This document shows positions 9,556 through 46,830 of a stretch of 64,000 bases of DNA, piece after piece; the stretch's first letter is position 1; every line of letters begins with the position of its first letter. The stretch comes from an uncultured archaeon (lineage in GTDB: Archaea; Iainarchaeota; Iainarchaeia; Iainarchaeales; CAZILS01). The DNA lies in contig CAZILS010000004.1 in NCBI GenBank assembly GCA_964540145.1, forward strand, positions 605 to 64,604, read 5' to 3'. The translations under genes and the position numbers were made by a program. The notes under the pieces are model-generated. The model ran no database searches. It was not told the DNA's origin and saw only the letters and a program-made list of their open reading frames with translations.

Positions 9556-9672
9556 CCATTAAATACTGTTCATCGACTATTTATTTGTGCGGTTTGCGGG
9601 CCTTCCCGAGGCAAGATGGCATATTGCCGGCAGGCTGCCGGTAAAAGCACGCTGCGCACAGAATGTGTTTTG

Positions 9673-9756
9673 GCAGGGGTTCCCGAGCGGTCAAAGGGGC
9701 TAGGTTTAGGGCCTAGTGGTTTAGTGCCTTCGGCGGTTCGAATCCGCCCCCCTGCA
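9673..9756 (+). tRNA. tRNA-Leu (anticodon UAG), type II with long variable arm
   Basis: Acceptor GCAGGGG/CCCCTGC+A, anticodon stem CTAGG/CCTAG, loop TTTAGGG, T-arm GGCGG-TTCGAAT-CCGCC. Confidence 0.8.
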
Positions 9757-9820
9757 CAACTTTTTTCCAAAAAGTTGACAAAAATCAGGAGTTGACAAAA
9801 ATCAGGGTGCGAGCCCCATC
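9739..9820 (+). repeat. 82-bp direct repeat copy 1 (tRNA-Leu 3' end + hairpin CAACTTTTTTCCAAAAAGTTG + 2x GTTGACAAAAATCAGG)
   Basis: Near-identical to 9887..9968, with 2 mismatches. Confidence 0.85.
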
Positions 9821-9886
9821 AAGGCGAGCTCGGTCTATACGGAGCAGAGCGAAGTATAGACCACGTACCAGGCGGACGTGTCGCCT

Positions 9887-9968
9887 TTCGAATCCGCCCC
9901 CCTGCACAACTTTTTTCCAAAAAGTTGACAAAAATCAGGAGTTGGCAAAAATCAGGTTGCGAGCCTAA
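9887..9968 (+). repeat. 82-bp direct repeat copy 2 (orphan tRNA-Leu 3'-terminal 21 nt + trailer)
   Basis: No matching 5' acceptor strand upstream. It is preceded by a perfect 9-bp hairpin GGTCTATAC...GTATAGACC (9835..9869). Confidence 0.85.
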
Positions 9969-10106
9969 TTGAGGCGTTGATTCAAAGGGCAACATACTCT
10001 GTTTCAGCAAGGAAGGCGTAAAAAGGATCGGTTAACCCCGGCCGGAGATTTGTTCCAAAACCCTTATATACCCAAAAAGCCAATAATTGTGAGTTAATTC
10101 AAAAAG

Positions 10107-11579: not shown

Positions 11580-11651
11580 GGGCTCGTGGTCTAGTGGTAT
11601 GACGCCGCCTTCACACGGCGGAGACCGGCGGTTCAATTCCGCCCGGGCCCA
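11580..11651 (+). tRNA. tRNA-Val (anticodon CAC)
   Basis: GGGCTCG acceptor, anticodon loop TTCACAC, T-arm GGCGG-TTCAATT-CCGCC, CGGGCCC+A 3' end. Confidence 0.85.
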
Positions 11652-16479: not shown

Positions 16480-16833
16480 CTGATTGTAAAGAAATAAGTG
16501 TAATGCCCTAGGTTTTGGTGGGGGTTGAAACTAGTCCTAGGGCACAACTGTAATGCCCTGAAAATTGGTGGGGGTTGAAACTAGTATTCCCAGGGCAAAA
16601 CCGCAATTTCTCTCCCCTCCGGGAAGAGAATTGAAGAAAGGGGGTCACCTCACGAAACCCCTCCTTTCTTCTCTTTTGTTTTTTTGTATTGAAGTTAACT
16701 CTTCTTATTTTTTTGTATTGGGGTTAAGGAGGGGCGGCACCCCGGATCCTTCGTTTCGAAAGGCAAAGGATTTGGTGGGGTCAATTGCCAGGGCGCCTTC
16801 CTTCCTCAAAGCTTTTGCACCAGTGCTTTCGCA
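16480..16833. ncRNA. Candidate structured ncRNA / repeat region in a convergent intergenic gap
   Basis: Two roughly 52-bp tandem units, each an inverted repeat (GCCCTAGG...CCTAGGGC; GCCCTG...CAGGGC) enclosing the conserved loop TTGGTGGGGGTTGAAACTAGT. Further hairpins follow (GAAGAAAGGGGG...CCCCTCCTTTCTTC; GCACCAGTGC/GCACTAGTGC). The region lies between two converging genes, so it is not a promoter. Confidence 0.35.
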
Positions 16834-25313: not shown

Positions 25314-25926
25314 CCATGGAATCGGTTATCCCAAGCTTTTTTAATGTTGGGAAATGGGCCCTTATTTTTCCCGTGCCAATATCCGAAACCCAGCCGTAAA
25401 CAGAAATATGTTTGGGGATTTTTTTCAGGTAGAACTTCTTGAGGTTATGCACCTGCAAAAGGACATTCGCCTCGACAATCGCTTTCCACATGGTTTCCTC
25501 ACTCAACGAAAGGTCAATTTTCCTTTTTTTCAGCAGGCCCTCAACCTTCCCCAGAATCCACTTGGAATTTGAGACCCATTTCTTCACAGGCTTGCTCCTG
25601 ATTTTCTTAAGTTCCAGAAGGGCTTTCATGCCGCCGCAGCCGTAGTGCCCGCAGACAACAATGTCCAAAGGCGAGAAATGGGAGATAGCATACTCTATTG
25701 CCGAACCCACAGCATAGTCATTCGAAACTATGTTCGCAACATTCCTTAGCACAAACAGCTCGCCGGGCTTCGCATTAACCAATTTCTCGGGAACAACCCT
25801 TGAATCGGAGCAGCCTATCCACAACACCCTTGGATTTTGCCCTTTGGAAAGCTTGTGGTAAAACGCATCCTGCTGCAATACCTCTTCCTTGTAAGCCTTG
25901 TTTCCCATGAAAAGCTTCTTCACCAT
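25264..25926 (-). CDS. Beta-class carbonic anhydrase
   Basis: CSDSR and HYGCGG zinc-ligand motifs. Confidence 0.8.
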   Translation of the reverse strand: MVKKLFMGNKAYKEEVLQQDAFYHKLSKGQNPRVLWIGCSDSRVVPEKLVNAKPGELFVLRNVANIVSNDYAVGSAIEYAISHFSPLDIVVCGHYGCGGMKALLELKKIRSKPVKKWVSNSKWILGKVEGLLKKRKIDLSLSEETMWKAIVEANVLLQVHNLKKFYLKKIPKHISVYGWVSDIGTGKIRAHFPTLKKLGITDSMVAELKLKPLGRGEFGW

Positions 25927-28778
25927 TGTTTCGCCTTCTCCCCAAGCTCTATGAAAAAATGCCTGTCAAGTAACTTCTCCATATTGCCTTTTTTATCTTT
26001 TATCCTTGAGTTTGTGTCCTTCTCAATTTCTTTCGCAAACTTCTTAATGAACGCAGGGTCGCTGCATCCCAAAAACAGCTCAACCCTGTCATTGGGGTTA
26101 AGTTTTGCCTCTTTCCTCATGGCCTGCACCTTCCTTGTAAGTTCCCTCAGCTCCCACTCGTCTTTCAAACCCTCAGAATCAATATTCAAATGGACCTTAA
26201 CATTGCCTACTTCCTTCACGGCGTAATTCCCCCCGGAAGGGGCTTTCTTCATTTCACTCGCTTCCTTGACATTAATCATCTTCGCAAGCACCCCTTTCAG
26301 CGAGGCAAGTTCCTTTCCCGACCCGCTCTCGACAACAACTCCCTTAAGCGGCCACCTAAGCCTCAGCCTGTTCTCTTCCCTCATGGAAAGCAGGGCTTGT
26401 GCGGAAGCCTGTACAACCGCCATCTCCTTCTCAAGCCGGCTATTCGGCATTTTTTTATCCTGTTCAGGAAGCTCCAGCAGATGCACGCTCTCTTCCATGC
26501 CCCTTGTCCTGTAGCCCCGGTAAACATACTCGGAAATGTGGGGGGTCACAGGCGCAAGCAATTTGACAAGCTCCATAAGCGCAATATTCAGGGTTTTCTT
26601 CGCAGCCTTCTCTGTCTTGGTTCCAACCCTGTCCTTGACGAGTTTTATGTAGGTCCTGCTTAAATCCTCCATAACAAACTGCTCAATGCCCTGCCGTATC
26701 TTCGGATAATGGTATTTGTTATACGCTTCCCTGCACTCGCCGATAACCCTGTTAAGCCGGCTCAATAACCATTTATCTTCCGGCTCAAGCTTAACCTTCT
26801 CCTTCACAATGCCGGGGTCCAAGCCCAGGTAAAGCTCTATGTAGTTGTAGGTGTTCCAGAAGATATTGAAAAACCTATGGACATCTCTGAAAGCGCCCCA
26901 GTCGAACATTATGTCCTCGCCCTTGCTCTCCCCGGAAAGGTAAAATCTTAAGTAATCACGGCTGTACTTTTCGATAACCTCAAACGGCGTAACAATATTC
27001 CCCAAGCTTTTTGACATCTTCTTCTTGCCCATATCGAGGATGGTGCTGTGCATCATCACCGCCTTGAACGGCTTCTCATCAAAGCATATCGCCGAGGTTA
27101 TTAGCTGCGAATTCCACCAGCCCCTTATCTGGTCCTTTGCCTCGATGTTCAAATCAGCGGGCCAGAATTTCTTGAACAGCCCGCCGTTTCCGGGATAGCC
27201 TAAACTCGCCCAGGAGCTTGCGCCCGAATCAAACCAGACATCAAGCACCTCGGGAACCCTTTTCATTGCGCCCTTGCACTTTCCGCAGGGAAAAATAACC
27301 TCATCTATGTAGGGCTTGTGCAAATCCAAACCTTTGGGAATCGCCGCAAGTTTTTCTAACTCTTTCCTCGATGCAACAACCTTCCTCTCGCCGCAGCCGC
27401 AGACCCAAATAGGCAAGGGGGTTCCCCAATACCTCTGCCTTGAGACAGGCCAGTCCCCCAGGCTCTCAAGCCAATTTTTGAACCTATCTTTCGACCATGA
27501 AGGTATCCACGTAACCTCCTTGTTAAGCTCAATCAGCCTCTTCCTTATCTTCGTTATCCTGAAAAACCATTGAGGGGTTGCGACCATAAGCAGAGGACTT
27601 TTACAACGCCAGCAAATCGGATAGTCGTGTGTGTAAGGGTGCCTGTAAACAACCGCATTGTCTTTTTCCAAATCTTCAATTATCTCCTTGTCAATTTCCC
27701 TCGCTATGCCCCCCCTGTATTTTCCCGCTGCTTCGTTCAGGCTCCCGTTTATTTCGACAGGGCAAACTATGGGAAGGCCTGCCTTGCTCCCTGCATCAAA
27801 GTCCTCCTTCCCGTGGCCGGGCGCGGTATGCACCAACCCTGTCCCCTCCTCAAGGTTCACATAGCGCTCGCTCATTATAACCCTGTAAGCGCCCTTCAAT
27901 TCCCCTAATTTCAAATTCTTCGCAAGCGGGTTTATATACTCCTTCCCTTCAAGCTCTTTTCCCTTGAATTCCCTTTTCACAAGGAAGCCCGCCTCTATGG
28001 AATCCATCAGGTGCCGCACCCTTTCCTTGGCGAGAATCCAGGTTTCTTCCCCTGCCTCAACCTCGACGTAATCAAATTTCGGGTGTGCCATTATCCCCAT
28101 ATTCCCCGGCAAGGTCCATGGCGTTGTTGTCCAGATTATGAAAAACTTCCCTTCCTCCCCTTTCAGGGGGAATTTAACATACACAGAATTGTCCGTCTGC
28201 TTCCTGTACTCAATCTCATTGTACGCAACCGCGGTAGCGCACCTTGGGCATACGTGGACAGGGTACTTTCCCAAGTAGAGCAAACCTTTCTCCTCTGCTT
28301 TCTTGAAGGTCCACCACAGCCCCTCTATGTAGCTGTTGTCAAGGGTGAGGTAAGGATTCTCCCAGTCCATCCAAACCCCCAAGTTTTCAAACTCGTCGTT
28401 CATGAACTCGATGTGTTCTGTCGCGAATTTCCTGCATTCCTTCACAAATTTCTCAATGCCAAACGTTTCTATCTCGGACTTGCACTTGATGTTGAATTTT
28501 TGCTCGACCTTGTTCTCAATCGGCAAACCATGGGTGTCATAGCCCGGTTGGTCCCGGGCATCAAGGCCCTGCATTCTCTTGGAGCGAATCGCAATATCCT
28601 TCAAAATTTTGTTCAGGGCGGTTCCCATATGGATGTGCCCGGAGGCATACGGCGGGCCGTCCATGAAATAGAAGCTCTTCTTTCCTCTGTTGAGCGCCCT
28701 TGCCTTCTTCGGAATGCCCTTGTCTTTCCAGAACTTCCTTACTCCTTCTTCCTTCTCTCTTGAATACGGCTCCAGCAT
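25920..28778 (-). CDS. ileS: Isoleucyl-tRNA synthetase
   Basis: HIGH motif (HMGTALNKI) and KMSKS motif (KMSKSLGN); about 950 aa. The start is set at the ATG at 28778 (MLEPYSREK...), because the longer ORF (to 28997) would run through the adjacent tRNA sequences. Confidence 0.9.
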   Translation of the reverse strand: MLEPYSREKEEGVRKFWKDKGIPKKARALNRGKKSFYFMDGPPYASGHIHMGTALNKILKDIAIRSKRMQGLDARDQPGYDTHGLPIENKVEQKFNIKCKSEIETFGIEKFVKECRKFATEHIEFMNDEFENLGVWMDWENPYLTLDNSYIEGLWWTFKKAEEKGLLYLGKYPVHVCPRCATAVAYNEIEYRKQTDNSVYVKFPLKGEEGKFFIIWTTTPWTLPGNMGIMAHPKFDYVEVEAGEETWILAKERVRHLMDSIEAGFLVKREFKGKELEGKEYINPLAKNLKLGELKGAYRVIMSERYVNLEEGTGLVHTAPGHGKEDFDAGSKAGLPIVCPVEINGSLNEAAGKYRGGIAREIDKEIIEDLEKDNAVVYRHPYTHDYPICWRCKSPLLMVATPQWFFRITKIRKRLIELNKEVTWIPSWSKDRFKNWLESLGDWPVSRQRYWGTPLPIWVCGCGERKVVASRKELEKLAAIPKGLDLHKPYIDEVIFPCGKCKGAMKRVPEVLDVWFDSGASSWASLGYPGNGGLFKKFWPADLNIEAKDQIRGWWNSQLITSAICFDEKPFKAVMMHSTILDMGKKKMSKSLGNIVTPFEVIEKYSRDYLRFYLSGESKGEDIMFDWGAFRDVHRFFNIFWNTYNYIELYLGLDPGIVKEKVKLEPEDKWLLSRLNRVIGECREAYNKYHYPKIRQGIEQFVMEDLSRTYIKLVKDRVGTKTEKAAKKTLNIALMELVKLLAPVTPHISEYVYRGYRTRGMEESVHLLELPEQDKKMPNSRLEKEMAVVQASAQALLSMREENRLRLRWPLKGVVVESGSGKELASLKGVLAKMINVKEASEMKKAPSGGNYAVKEVGNVKVHLNIDSEGLKDEWELRELTRKVQAMRKEAKLNPNDRVELFLGCSDPAFIKKFAKEIEKDTNSRIKDKKGNMEKLLDRHFFIELGEKAKQW

Positions 28779-28855
28779 TTGAAACAACCTTAGTTTGATT
28801 TTTGCCTTAGCAAAAATCCTTTCTTTTGTAAACTTTTCTTTTCGAAAGAAAAGTT

Positions 28856-28950
28856 TGGGCGTAGGAGGATTTGAACGCCAACGGGTGGTTGGCGTCATCC
28901 TGCCATACTGCGTATGGCAGTTCCGCCTTGCGGCGGCCTCCCGTTGCCTT
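28856..28950 (-). other. tRNA-like fragment: orphan copy of tRNA-Ile 3'-terminal 21 nt preceded by two hairpins
   Basis: TTCAAATCCTCCTACGCCCA is duplicated from tRNA-Ile. Upstream (in the transcribed sense) is a perfect 9-bp hairpin CTGCCATAC-GCA-GTATGGCAG and a second hairpin ACGCCAAC-CACCC-GTTGGCGT. There is no matching 5' acceptor strand or T-stem, so it cannot fold as a complete tRNA. Confidence 0.6.
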
Positions 28951-29025
28951 TGGGCGTAGGAGGATTTGAACCTCCGACCCTTGGTGTATAAGACCAATGC
29001 TCTGCCAGGCTAAGCTATACGCCCC
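28951..29025 (-). tRNA. tRNA-Ile (anticodon UAU)
   Basis: Reverse complement GGGGCGTATAGCTTAGCCTGGCAGAGCATTGGTCTTATACACCAAGGGTCGGAGGTTCAAATCCTCCTACGCCCA: acceptor GGGGCGT/ACGCCC+A, anticodon stem TTGGT/ACCAA, loop CTTATAC giving anticodon TAT. Confidence 0.75.
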
Positions 29026-29120
29026 AAAACGCATTCTGTGTGCGGCATGCGTTTACAAGCCCCAATAAGCTCGTTATATAGAAACTATTATAGAACTTTT
29101 AAATAGGTAACTAAATCAGG

Positions 29121-30043: not shown

Positions 30044-30137
30044 ACCAATAAAAAAGAAAAAGAATGCCCCCCCGCACCTGCGGGAGGGAACTCAACTACT
30101 TACATCATGCCCCACCCTGCGGATGGGGCCTCTGCCA

Positions 30138-38390: not shown

Positions 38391-38503
38391 GCTAAGAATT
38401 AGGAGGAAATTATATTTAAGTTTAGCACCTGTTTGCGAGTCCTTTTGGGACGAGCCAATCCCATACGCAGTATGGGATGCACTTATCGCGGGCATTGCGA
38501 TTG

Positions 38504-38717
38504 CCCTCAGTCCGCCCTCAAGCCGGTTTCGTCCGGCTGCACCGAGATATGTGTCCCACTTCATTTCATTCAGTGGGACGGTAATATTCCGCAATCAAAA
38601 GTACCCTCAGTCCGCCCTCAAGCCGGTTTCGTCCGGCTGCACCGAGATATGTGTCCCACTTCATTTCATTCAGTGGGACGGTAATATTCCGCAATCAAAA
38701 GTACCCTCAGTCCGCCC
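38504..38717. repeat. 100-bp tandem repeat, 2.14 copies, each unit containing two hairpins
   Basis: 38504..38603 is identical to 38604..38703, followed by a partial third unit. Hairpins AGCCGG-TTTCGT-CCGGCT and GTCCCACT-TCATTTCATTC-AGTGGGAC. Confidence 0.9.
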
Positions 38718-38774
38718 ATCTGTCGTCATCGGGGTGAATAGCCCCTCGGTTCATCGTCAGGTCATCATCGGGCA
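38717..38774 (+). repeat. 58-bp perfect direct repeat, left copy, flanking the AbiE-like cassette
   Basis: CATCTGTCGTCATCGGGGTGAATAGCCCCTCGGTTCATCGTCAGGTCATCATCGGGCA, identical to 40450..40507. Confidence 0.9.
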
Positions 38775-40449: not shown

Positions 40450-40507
40450 CATCTGTCGTCATCGGGGTGAATAGCCCCTCGGTTCATCGTCAGGTCATCA
40501 TCGGGCA
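40450..40507 (+). repeat. 58-bp perfect direct repeat, right copy
   Basis: Identical to 38717..38774. Confidence 0.9.
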
Positions 40508-46097: not shown

Positions 46098-46210
46098 ACT
46101 ATCGGGGAGATATAGGCTTTTCAGGTATTTAAATATACCCTAAAGAAAAAAGAAAAAGGTTTCCCCCCGCGCCCTTGCGGAAGGAGGGGGCAACGAAACT
46201 AAACTTTGCC

Positions 46211-46687: not shown

Positions 46688-46830
46688 CCCTCCTTTGGTT
46701 ATTTAATCTAAAAAGGGTGTTTAAACTACTATATAAAGCTGTTCTTTGAAAGCTGCTTTAAACCGAAAAAGAAAAAGGTTTCCCCCCCGCTCCCTTGCGG
46801 GAGGAGGAGGCAACGAAACTAAACTTTGCC

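Follow-up and report, generated by a model that had tools for sequence, protein, structure and literature searches.

A stretch of 64 kb of DNA, here called the window, contains a genuine tRNA-Ile gene with a UAU anticodon directly upstream of the isoleucyl-tRNA synthetase gene ileS, a gene pair that is conserved across Iainarchaeia. Between the two genes, the 3' end of the tRNA is repeated exactly behind a GC-rich spacer. With modest confidence, we regard this orphan 3' end as the tail of a second, 5'-truncated tRNA-Ile unit, i.e. as a relic of a local duplication.

tRNA-Ile(UAU) and its linkage to ileS

The two genes of the pair are:

28951-29024, minus strand: intact tRNA-Ile(UAU) (ARAGORN and Rfam RF00005)
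25920-28778, minus strand: ileS, isoleucyl-tRNA synthetase (IleRS) of 952 aa (translation; homologues; Pfam tRNA-synt_1/Anticodon_1 in the gene table of L081)

ARAGORN assigned 28951-29024 on the minus strand to tRNA-Ile with the anticodon TAT, as an initial annotation made from the sequence alone had claimed. The covariance scoring which that annotation had asked for was performed with RF00005 and gave 71.3 bits over model positions 1-71, well over the gathering score of 29. Also the anticodon loop CTTATAC, when read directly, yields the U33, UAU and A37 described before. By sequence comparison, the gene is near-identical to the UAU genes located ahead of ileS in relatives. In L058, L098 and L100, the UAU gene and a tRNA-Ile(GAU) gene on the same contig share both ends (19-30 nt), and in L092 the UAU gene has only a 20-nt 3' stretch in common with tRNA-Ile(GAU).

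In seven long ORFs of the window, AUA is the commonest isoleucine codon (144/325, 44%), and tRNA-Ile(UAU) is therefore a major tRNA. No tRNA with a CAU anticodon was detected by ARAGORN among the three tRNAs of the 64-kb window. In archaea, tRNA-Ile(UAU) is rare; of 167 genomes, those of Korarchaeum and Nanoarchaeum were found to encode it (PMC6000648), which fits the earlier assignment of UAU isoacceptors to lineages of this type. ARMAN lineages (DPANN) reportedly possess tRNA-Ile(UAU) and are missing both tRNA-Ile(CAU) and TiaS (PMC3239211); owing to this precedent the anticodon is of a known kind. The AUA system of Nanoarchaeum, Korarchaeum and ARMAN shares with the window the encoded UAU anticodon, U33 and A37, to which heavy AUA use is added here, whereas a class-wide tight linkage to ileS is not part of its description. 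Iainarchaeia join the archaea that read AUA via a genomically encoded UAU tRNA.

The ATG of ileS is located at position 28778, 172 nt downstream of the 3' end of tRNA-Ile(UAU) and with the same orientation, close to the distance of about 170 bp given before. The IleRS of the window is 60-66% identical to proteins of Iainarchaeum MAGs (Diapherotrites, DPANN), which places the lineage in Iainarchaeia. Among 5.8 billion proteins, no IleRS relative with more than 66% identity was found. Exact-protein look-ups of the IleRS and of a 120-aa neighbor gave no record, and the look-up of a carbonic-anhydrase neighbor led to L081.

ARAGORN found tRNA-Ile(TAT) ahead of ileS, and in the same orientation, in 23 loci fetched with IleRS. 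An intron-aware run revealed an intron-containing tRNA-Ile(UAU) ahead of ileS in two further loci, L011 and L022, and in L082, the closest relative, tRNA-Ile(UAU) is located 22 nt before the ileS ATG. Taken together (the 23 loci, L011 and L022, and L082), the pair is present in about 25 of 30 informative loci, i.e. Iainarchaeia loci with enough sequence upstream of ileS; in L003 and L008, tRNA-Ala(UGC) is found at that place instead. The initial annotation had noticed the UAU tRNA by the IleRS gene but overlooked this clade-wide synteny, and we know of no earlier report of a class-wide conservation of tRNA-Ile(UAU) and ileS in Iainarchaeia. In L020, L082, L037 and L108, the gap between tRNA and ileS comprises 19-45 nt, which leaves no space for a promoter of its own and naturally points to co-transcription. 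Hence, tRNA-Ile(UAU) and ileS are probably co-transcribed, at least in relatives with a short gap of 19-25 nt. A tRNA gene directly upstream of a translation gene is also found in the thrU-tufB operon of E. coli. By analogy, the linkage recalls the co-adaptation of IleRS and anticodon in Mycoplasma mobile (PMC3575796), and physical coupling across a class might be a simple means to hold a co-adapted tRNA-enzyme pair together.

Repeated tRNA ends at the Ile and Leu loci

On the 3' side of tRNA-Ile(UAU), the following features were found in the direction of ileS:

28949-28971, minus strand: R1, first repeat copy, from the T-loop of the intact tRNA to 2 nt past its 3' end, GTTCAAATCCTCCTACGCCCAAA (direct repeat, 23 nt, 100%)
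28877-28948, minus strand: X(Ile), a 72-nt GC-rich spacer with three perfect hairpins (inverted repeats; fold z = -5.9)
28923-28936, minus strand: third hairpin of X(Ile), CCGCC-GCAA-GGCGG (inverted repeat)
28900-28920, minus strand: hairpin of X(Ile), CTGCCATAC/GTATGGCAG (inverted repeat)
28875-28895, minus strand: hairpin of X(Ile), ACGCCAAC/GTTGGCGT (inverted repeat)
28854-28876, minus strand: R2, the orphan, tRNA positions 53-73 plus 2 nt (AA) (exact 23-nt repeat of R1)
28830-28856, minus strand: T-rich perfect palindrome with 12-bp arms, AAACTTTTCTTTCGAAAAGAAAAGTTT (inverted repeat)
28797-28818, minus strand: second hairpin, GATTTTTGC-TAAG-GCAAAAATC with a T5 run, between palindrome and ileS (inverted repeat; terminator-like and palindrome scans)

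The recurrence of the terminal 21 nt (28856-28876 and 28951-28971) had already been noted and is exact; in the repeat search, it extended to 23 nt (28854-28876 and 28949-28971) with a start-to-start spacing of 95 nt. To the two hairpins described ahead of the orphan, a third one was added at 28923-28936. The intergenic DNA around the GC-rich X(Ile) is AT-rich. The 95 nt of X(Ile) and R2 are predicted to fold into a four-way junction (-49.8 kcal/mol, z = -5.9), and none of 200 shuffles was as stable.

The palindrome reported to follow the orphan is present, yet the string quoted for it was one base short. Homologous palindromes of the AACCTTTTCTTT...AAAGAAAAGGTT type are located directly 3' of tRNA-Ile in L004, L005, L007, L014, L027, L029, L030 and L062, and in the window the palindrome adjoins the orphan R2 instead of the complete tRNA-Ile. 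As the canonical trailer of the tRNA, it likely acts as terminator or attenuator. Within the 64 kb, the palindrome scan detected perfect T-rich palindromes only at the two loci of tRNA-Ile and tRNA-Leu, where one directly follows each copy of a tRNA 3' end and another one lies in the spacer ahead of ileS.

An assembly artefact as the source of the orphan was ruled out, since 371 nt of the Ile locus are 100% identical in a Logan assembly made independently (SRR7048224, L081) and further assemblies, among them a complete Nanohaloarchaeon chromosome, show the orphan architecture as well. Template switching, which would make X a patchwork of direct or inverted copies of nearby sequence, is unsupported for the X elements of the window. 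With permissive thresholds, Rfam searches of the Ile, Leu, 38.4-kb and 16.5-kb regions gave only tRNA and weak C/D-box sRNA matches. Pairing of leader and trailer as a processing stem yielded a single 8-bp match, which is at chance level.

On the 5' side of tRNA-Ile(UAU), further elements are located:

29027-29054, minus strand: leader hairpin B', 8 bp, AAACGCAT...ATGCGTTT, ending in the motif CACAGAATGCGTTTTG (inverted repeat)
29054-29070, minus strand: diverged 5' fragment, leader end and tRNA positions 1-9, GCTTATTG / GGGCTTGTA (13/17 identical to 29016-29032)
29096-29107, minus strand: promoter-like box CCTATTTAAAAG, kept in L082 as GCTATTTAAATA (pairwise alignment)

While the initial annotation had described the 3'-end duplicates, it overlooked such diverged 5'-end fragments, which lie upstream of both tRNAs. 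In a pairwise alignment, the region upstream of tRNA-Ile is colinear with the promoter, the short leader and tRNA positions 1-10 of L082, with ACGAGCTTATTG / GGGCTTGTA of the window aligned to ACGAGGCTTTTT / GGGCCTGTA of L082 in the fragment. The CCTATTTAAAAG box is a putative promoter, and the fragment at 29054-29070 may mark the ancestral start of the gene. As this fragment is 76% identical to the present tRNA gene and differs in its acceptor sequence, it should be older than the perfectly identical 3' orphan. A single nested-insertion event was ruled out because the acceptor of the 5' fragment is older and L082-like as compared to R2. The motif CACAGAATGCGTTTTG occurs in the window only at tRNA-Ile and tRNA-Leu, with 0.08 chance matches expected.

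The parallel drawn before to the tRNA-Leu locus holds, and the duplication there is even larger:

9593-9610, plus strand: diverged tRNA-Leu 5' fragment, positions 1-15, GCGGGCCTTCCCGAG (14/18 identical to 9670-9687)
9674-9756, plus strand: intact tRNA-Leu(UAG) (ARAGORN; Rfam 49.3 bits)
9831-9887, plus strand: X(Leu), a full copy of the two-hairpin module described below, ending at T54 of the orphan (covariance model R2, 15.5 bits, E = 0.06)
9887-9976, plus strand: second copy of the tRNA-Leu T-loop to 3' end with a palindrome (9907-9927) and some 50 nt of flanking sequence (repeat)

The stretches 9887-9976 and 9737-9826 are 93% identical over 90 nt with a period of 150, so that the 3' duplication of tRNA-Leu, longer than that of tRNA-Ile, includes the palindrome as well as the first part of the module that comes next. 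Between the repeats lie 60 nt for tRNA-Leu and 72 nt for tRNA-Ile. The 5' fragment of tRNA-Leu is located 77 nt upstream and scores 12/16 in the polarity scan given below. Together with the long 3' duplication, it suggests a decayed array of units. None of the features of the Ile and Leu loci was found at tRNA-Val (11580-11651).

The two-hairpin module upstream of tRNA genes

About 60 nt directly upstream of tRNA-Ile(UAU) represent a conserved module in many relatives. It consists of hairpin A, a linker and hairpin B, which ends 0-2 nt before tRNA +1, and in hairpin A an invariant internal loop (5'-GA/3'-GAA) separates a lower from an upper stem. Covariation was observed for hairpin A, with 88.9% of cells paired and six of nine pairs changed on both sides; none of 500 shuffles reached its score. 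A covariance model of the whole module (named R2, like the orphan repeat) detected the module 20 times in 0.63 Mb of loci from Iainarchaeia, and at least 11 of these copies end exactly at tRNA-Ile +1. Stand-alone copies exist as well, e.g. behind the thermosome genes of L009 and L023, and in L091 a copy is inverted between the tRNA and ileS. No family matching the two-hairpin module was found in Rfam. By inspection, C/D box, standard K-turn, hammerhead and H/ACA were ruled out for hairpin A because of the 2x3 GA/GAA internal loop and because the hammerhead core positions G5/A6 are missing. Generic hairpins right next to the tRNA 5' end were no more frequent than at the control position (51 vs 40 of 106), and the claim is therefore restricted to the GC-rich covarying module.

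In the whole window (both strands, filters off), the best match of the covariance model was X(Leu) at 9831-9887. For sequence tests, 15 leaders from relatives were used with dinucleotide shuffles and a maximum-over-leaders null. X(Leu) gave p = 0.011 for the best match and p < 0.001 for the sum of the top five, and the X element of L097 gave p = 0.002 and p < 0.001, respectively. For X(Ile), the best match was the tRNA-Ile leader of L010 (p = 0.019), and the top-five sum reached p = 0.108. Reverse-complement controls of these tests were not significant. The window contains a third copy of the module at 38428-38506, which has a central hairpin in common with X(Ile) (15-nt identity, p = 0.002) and matches the L010 leader with p < 0.001. 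X(Ile) was not detected by the covariance models and is without the GA/GAA loop. There is strong evidence that X(Leu) and the X of L097 are copies of the two-hairpin module, and from sequence comparison X(Ile) resembles it to a moderate extent.

The module bears on a different explanation, in which the arrangement is a functional dicistronic unit. X would then be a candidate small structured RNA of the module family that is co-transcribed with the tRNA and has its 5' end freed by tRNase Z, while the orphan would pair with GGGAGG in X, close the four-way junction and stabilise or define the 3' end of the RNA, which may double as a structured 5' UTR of ileS. The very stable independent fold predicted for X and R2, the GC content of X within its AT-rich surroundings and the perfect identity of R1 and R2 agree with this explanation, as do the covariation and dispersal of the module family, its stand-alone copies with promoter-like upstream sequence and the retention of X at tRNA-Ser in two Nanohaloarchaeon genomes. 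We nevertheless consider it unlikely, albeit with an appreciable chance of being right: about 50 other tRNA-Ile(UAU) loci are devoid of the orphan, save for the independent, dissimilar cases in L023, L097 and L101; at tRNA-Leu, the same layout is followed by a gene for a CNNM/CorC transporter, not for a synthetase; and a T6 palindrome lies between tRNA-Leu and X(Leu).

More speculative, and in our view rather improbable, is the proposal that the two-hairpin module with its GA/GAA loop constitutes an undescribed, dispersed family of structured RNAs of Iainarchaeia that ride tRNA units and are freed by tRNA-processing enzymes. If this were true, the layout of tRNA, module and orphan, here and in other DPANN, would represent a dicistronic design that is functional or at least kept by selection. 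It might moreover provide raw material for non-canonical T-loop introns and split tRNA genes, and on decay of R1 the segment R1+X would need splicing out. In any case, the relic led to a family of covarying modules abutting tRNA +1 that is absent from Rfam.

Distribution and origin of the orphan 3' ends

In the tRNA-Ile(UAU)-ileS loci of 23 relatives, no long orphan was found; L023 has one of 14 nt. A metagenome scan with the anticodon-arm sequence provided 34 more tRNA-Ile(UAU) loci, two of them with independent orphans, of 25 nt located 90 nt downstream in L097 and of 21 nt located 69 nt downstream in L101. An orphan of the Ile type was not found at the closest relative L082. The long orphan is specific to its lineage, but the layout recurs in unrelated DPANN loci: in Nanohaloarchaea, 3'-end copies are located downstream of tRNA-Ser and tRNA-Cys, and L061, L069 and L071 show the mirror image with 5'-end copies upstream of the tRNA. 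Among 102 unique tRNAs, nine had a copy of their own end with at least 14/16 matches, all on the cognate side, while four control configurations (wrong side, reverse complement) never exceeded 12/16. Exact own-end copies were all located 42-129 nt away and none at kb range. About 9% of the tRNAs examined in these streamlined DPANN genomes hence have their own end copied at micro-scale and with strict polarity.

Partial tRNA gene copies are known to flank integrated mobile elements (van der Gulik et al. 2023, PMC9897764), and a direct repeat from the T-loop to beyond the 3' end is the classical att signature (PMC9897764, PMC3293823). The locus could accordingly be an integration scar, with a tyrosine-recombinase element having entered at the T-loop, R1 as the supplied 3' end, R2 as the displaced original (attR), next to which the original trailer is still located, and X as a remnant of the element left by a deletion. 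We consider this quite improbable. Known att duplications, such as those of SSV1/pNOB8-type integration, also reach from the T-loop to the 3' end and slightly beyond, but the 9-23 kb between them belong to an element that has an integrase, whereas here the copies are separated by 38-130 nt without an integrase, and by just 72 nt at tRNA-Ile. Neither tRNA of the window is accompanied by integrase or mobile-element genes, the neighbors being OB-fold/Ssb, IleRS, Ham1 and the CNNM/CorC transporter. Moreover, the intervening DNA is like the clade's own tRNA-associated chromosomal module (moderately so for tRNA-Ile) and not like foreign DNA, 5'-end fragments are present too, and 1.5 Mb of related loci contained nine micro-scale cases and no kb-scale tRNA-flanked insert. 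Scans of viral contigs with four queries (two tRNA 3' ends and two X hairpins) gave no match, and in BLAST searches against phages and plasmids X and the att-like repeats were unmatched, the tRNA body being the sole match. Thus, orphans of tRNA ends need not be scars of viruses or plasmids, and annotation pipelines as well as integration-site finders could misread them.

The position of the orphan upstream of ileS could also suggest a T-box-like sensor or a tRNA-mimic operator by which IleRS autoregulates ileS, as in the case of thrS in E. coli. Within a cloverleaf-like fold, the 3' strands of the tRNA-Ile acceptor and T-arm are indeed copied perfectly 75 nt upstream of the ileS start, and a structured RNA with tRNA sequence in the spacer is what the thrS operator and T-boxes have in common with the window. 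Unlike these systems, the window does not mimic a specifier or an anticodon arm, as its loops consist of GCAA, GCA and CACCC. The spacer element is not kept upstream of ileS in any relative (L082 and about 50 other loci). Moreover, at tRNA-Leu, and in other lineages at tRNA-Ser and tRNA-Cys, this architecture is found without a synthetase gene behind it. This lack of conservation largely refutes the operator, which we regard as extremely improbable. To our knowledge, there are no T-boxes in archaea.

The reading that we prefer is the duplication relic introduced above. The tRNA-Ile(UAU) gene would be the working gene and the AUA decoder of the organism, paired with ileS, and the second unit would consist of a 72-nt module copy joined to tRNA position 53/54, followed by the terminal 21 nt of the tRNA and the trailer palindrome. 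X is like the module usually found right before tRNA +1, and the palindrome corresponds to the regular trailer. The orphan would therefore be the 3' end of a truncated unit, and module, orphan and palindrome would make up a normal tRNA unit from which positions 1 to about 52 are missing. Its leader, tRNA part and trailer are arranged and oriented as in a normal unit, with strong evidence for tRNA-Leu and L097 and moderate evidence for tRNA-Ile. The initial annotation had left its tRNA-linked element unexplained, and we revise it accordingly to a module-like X, an orphan and a normal trailer.

An older tRNA 5' end may have left the diverged 17-nt fragment at the ancestral start site. Since the same nested layout exists at tRNA-Leu and in other DPANN genomes, repeated partial duplications of tRNA units over short distances, with subsequent deletions, probably gave rise to these arrangements. 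Selection would retain one intact gene per arrangement, which would explain the strict polarity of own-end copies. Most likely, the relic is transcribed as tRNA 3' trailer or ileS 5' UTR, is removed by tRNase Z and has no required function. For the order of events we depend on inference, the closest IleRS being 66% identical.

Several observations count against the relic. The junction of module end and T-loop recurs at tRNA-Ile, tRNA-Leu and L097 and is tidier than random deletion predicts. R1 and R2 are 100% identical as compared to 76-78% for the 5' fragments, so that the orphan would have to be recent, homogenised by conversion or constrained. The fold stability of X and R2 (z = -5.9) would also suit a functional RNA. 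Furthermore, the leader motif GCACAGAATGYGTTTTG (16/17 nt alike) is common to only the two rearranged tRNAs, and the X elements of L101 and of Nanohaloarchaea have no detectable likeness to the module.

The orphan might also be an alternative 3' exon, with the 5' part of the tRNA pairing with R2 and R1+X being spliced out by the splicing endonuclease as a large T-loop insertion, or the gene might be heading there. In the minimum-free-energy fold of a 235-nt transcript, the 5' strands of acceptor and T-stem pair with R2 and R1 pairs with GGGAGG in X. DPANN have non-canonical introns, e.g. at 59/60 of tRNA-Cys in ARMAN-2 (PMC3239211), and the tRNA-Cys orphan of the Nanohaloarchaeon begins at about position 59/60. 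Nevertheless, such splicing is very improbable, as a complete, high-scoring and uninterrupted tRNA exists. A bulge-helix-bulge between identical repeats requires a self-complementary 4-mer after the splice site, and inspection revealed none in the repeat of tRNA-Ile; the predicted junctions are single strands of 6-7 nt and not 3-nt bulges. As a precursor of disrupted genes, the arrangement is conceivable.

The duplication relic comes close to the duplication-degeneration models for permuted tRNA genes and for the tRNA-Thr fragment of Caldiarchaeum (PMC3293823). In these models, too, a full gene is located beside terminal fragments of the same orientation that were generated within the lineage, with a potential bearing on the origin of split and intron-containing genes. 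They differ in that here neither a recombinase-bearing insert nor a sign of fragment use was found, the window shows the phenomenon at a scale of tens of nucleotides, and no splicing is required for its intact gene. The nested fragments would be plausible intermediates on the way to the disrupted tRNA genes typical of small archaea.

The two-hairpin module and the leaders of tRNA-Ile and tRNA-Leu

In at least 11 loci of Iainarchaeia, a covarying structured RNA, here called the module, lies directly against position +1 of tRNA-Ile(UAU). Its hairpin A encloses an invariant 5'-GA/3'-GAA internal loop and is joined by a linker to hairpin B; the module had no match among Rfam families. In the comparison loci from Iainarchaeia, copies were found at L005:9692-9754, L027:4010-4069, L030:7174-7234, L021:9793-9850, L103:1285-1340 and 15 further places; the L091 copy is inverted, and stand-alone copies occur in L009, L023, L031, L005, L032 and L116. 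The window carries a copy at 9831-9887, which is the spacer X(Leu) at tRNA-Leu(UAG), and another at 38.4 kb, where the following elements were located:

38428-38506, plus strand: third module copy of the window (score 51 against the tRNA-Ile leader of L010, p < 0.001)
38504-38717: perfect 100-nt tandem duplication with three CCCTCAGTCCGCCC copies as boundaries
38705-38772, minus strand: weak match to archaeal C/D-box sRNAs (sR2/sR1; E = 0.03-0.08), adjoining the tandem duplication

This third copy and X(Ile), the GC-rich spacer between tRNA-Ile(UAU) and the orphan copy of its 3' end, have the 15-nt hairpin CCATACGCAGTATGG in common; the third copy is followed by no tRNA and continues into the CCCTCAGTCCGCCC repeats. 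Each 100-nt unit contains a GA-loop hairpin matched by the covariance model R1 (38553-38580 and 38653-38680, minus strand), and 58 nt of the C/D-box match recur exactly 1.7 kb away (40450-40507). Together, the duplications, the weak sRNA match and the GA-loop hairpins look like a cluster of small-RNA genes in which duplications took place recently.

Immediately 5' of two tRNA genes lies the 18-nt motif GCACAGAATGYGTTTTGG, as the 3' half of a hairpin in the leader:

9656-9673, plus strand: GCACAGAATGYGTTTTGG before tRNA-Leu
29024-29041, minus strand: GCACAGAATGYGTTTTGG before tRNA-Ile

The motif was found only at these two genes, with 0.08 matches expected by chance, and is lacking at tRNA-Val.

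The ileS upstream region and tRNA-end copies in other DPANN

The spacer between tRNA-Ile and ileS is crowded with GC-rich hairpins and AAAAGAAAAG-type purine repeats in many relatives (L084, L102, L116, L092 and L006/L021/L040), varies in these elements from lineage to lineage, and appears to be an insertion hotspot for structured elements. In two Iainarchaeia loci (L003:9717, L008:83), tRNA-Ala(UGC) lies directly upstream of ileS instead of tRNA-Ile(UAU).

On the AT-rich DPANN contigs L058, L092, L098 and L100, tRNA-Ile(UAU) and tRNA-Ile(GAU) are 3-5.7 kb apart. In L058, L098 and L100 the two genes are near-identical over 19-23 nt on the 5' side and over 22-30 nt on the 3' side; in L092 a common stretch of 20 nt was found, at the 3' end only. 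The shared ends suggest that the UAU gene originated as a duplicate of the GAU gene.

Like the window, Nanohaloarchaea and one Undinarchaeales MAG carry tRNA-end copies on a micro scale (L067:5286-5620, L068:2474-2700, L067:17130-17351, L061:20607-20740, L069:19961-20090, L071:6670-6955). There, 3'-end copies lie downstream of tRNA-Ser(CGA) and tRNA-Cys, and 5'-end copies upstream of tRNA-Cys and of a tRNA with an intron. The spacer at tRNA-Ser(CGA) is conserved between two genomes and holds an inverted T-loop copy; in L067 there seems to be a second orphan, degenerate and accompanied by a palindrome.

Other hairpins and repeats in the window

Further structured or repeated elements are:

16496-16600, plus strand: adjacent hairpin pair 3' of a gene, with near-identical loop core TTGGTGGGGGTTGAAACTAGT
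16676-16727: 23-nt repeat pair TTGTTTTTTTGTATTGAAGTTAA after these hairpins
30047-30129, 46143-46185, 46762-46804: GC-rich hairpins with long T runs after them, 3' of minus-strand genes (thermosome and others)
2134-2433/4204-4503, 46145-46444/46765-47064: two repeat pairs of at least 300 nt with 96-97% identity
53148-54706: tandem array of about 12 units of 87 nt (29 codons), presumably within a coding region

The stems of the adjacent hairpin pair show compensatory differences (GCCCTAGG/CCTAGGGC versus GCCCTG/CAGGGC), and an Rfam search with the pair gave no match. The hairpins with T runs look like intrinsic-type terminators. The one beside the thermosome stop codon, CCCCATCCGCAGGGTGGGG, is similar to the central hairpin of X(Ile).
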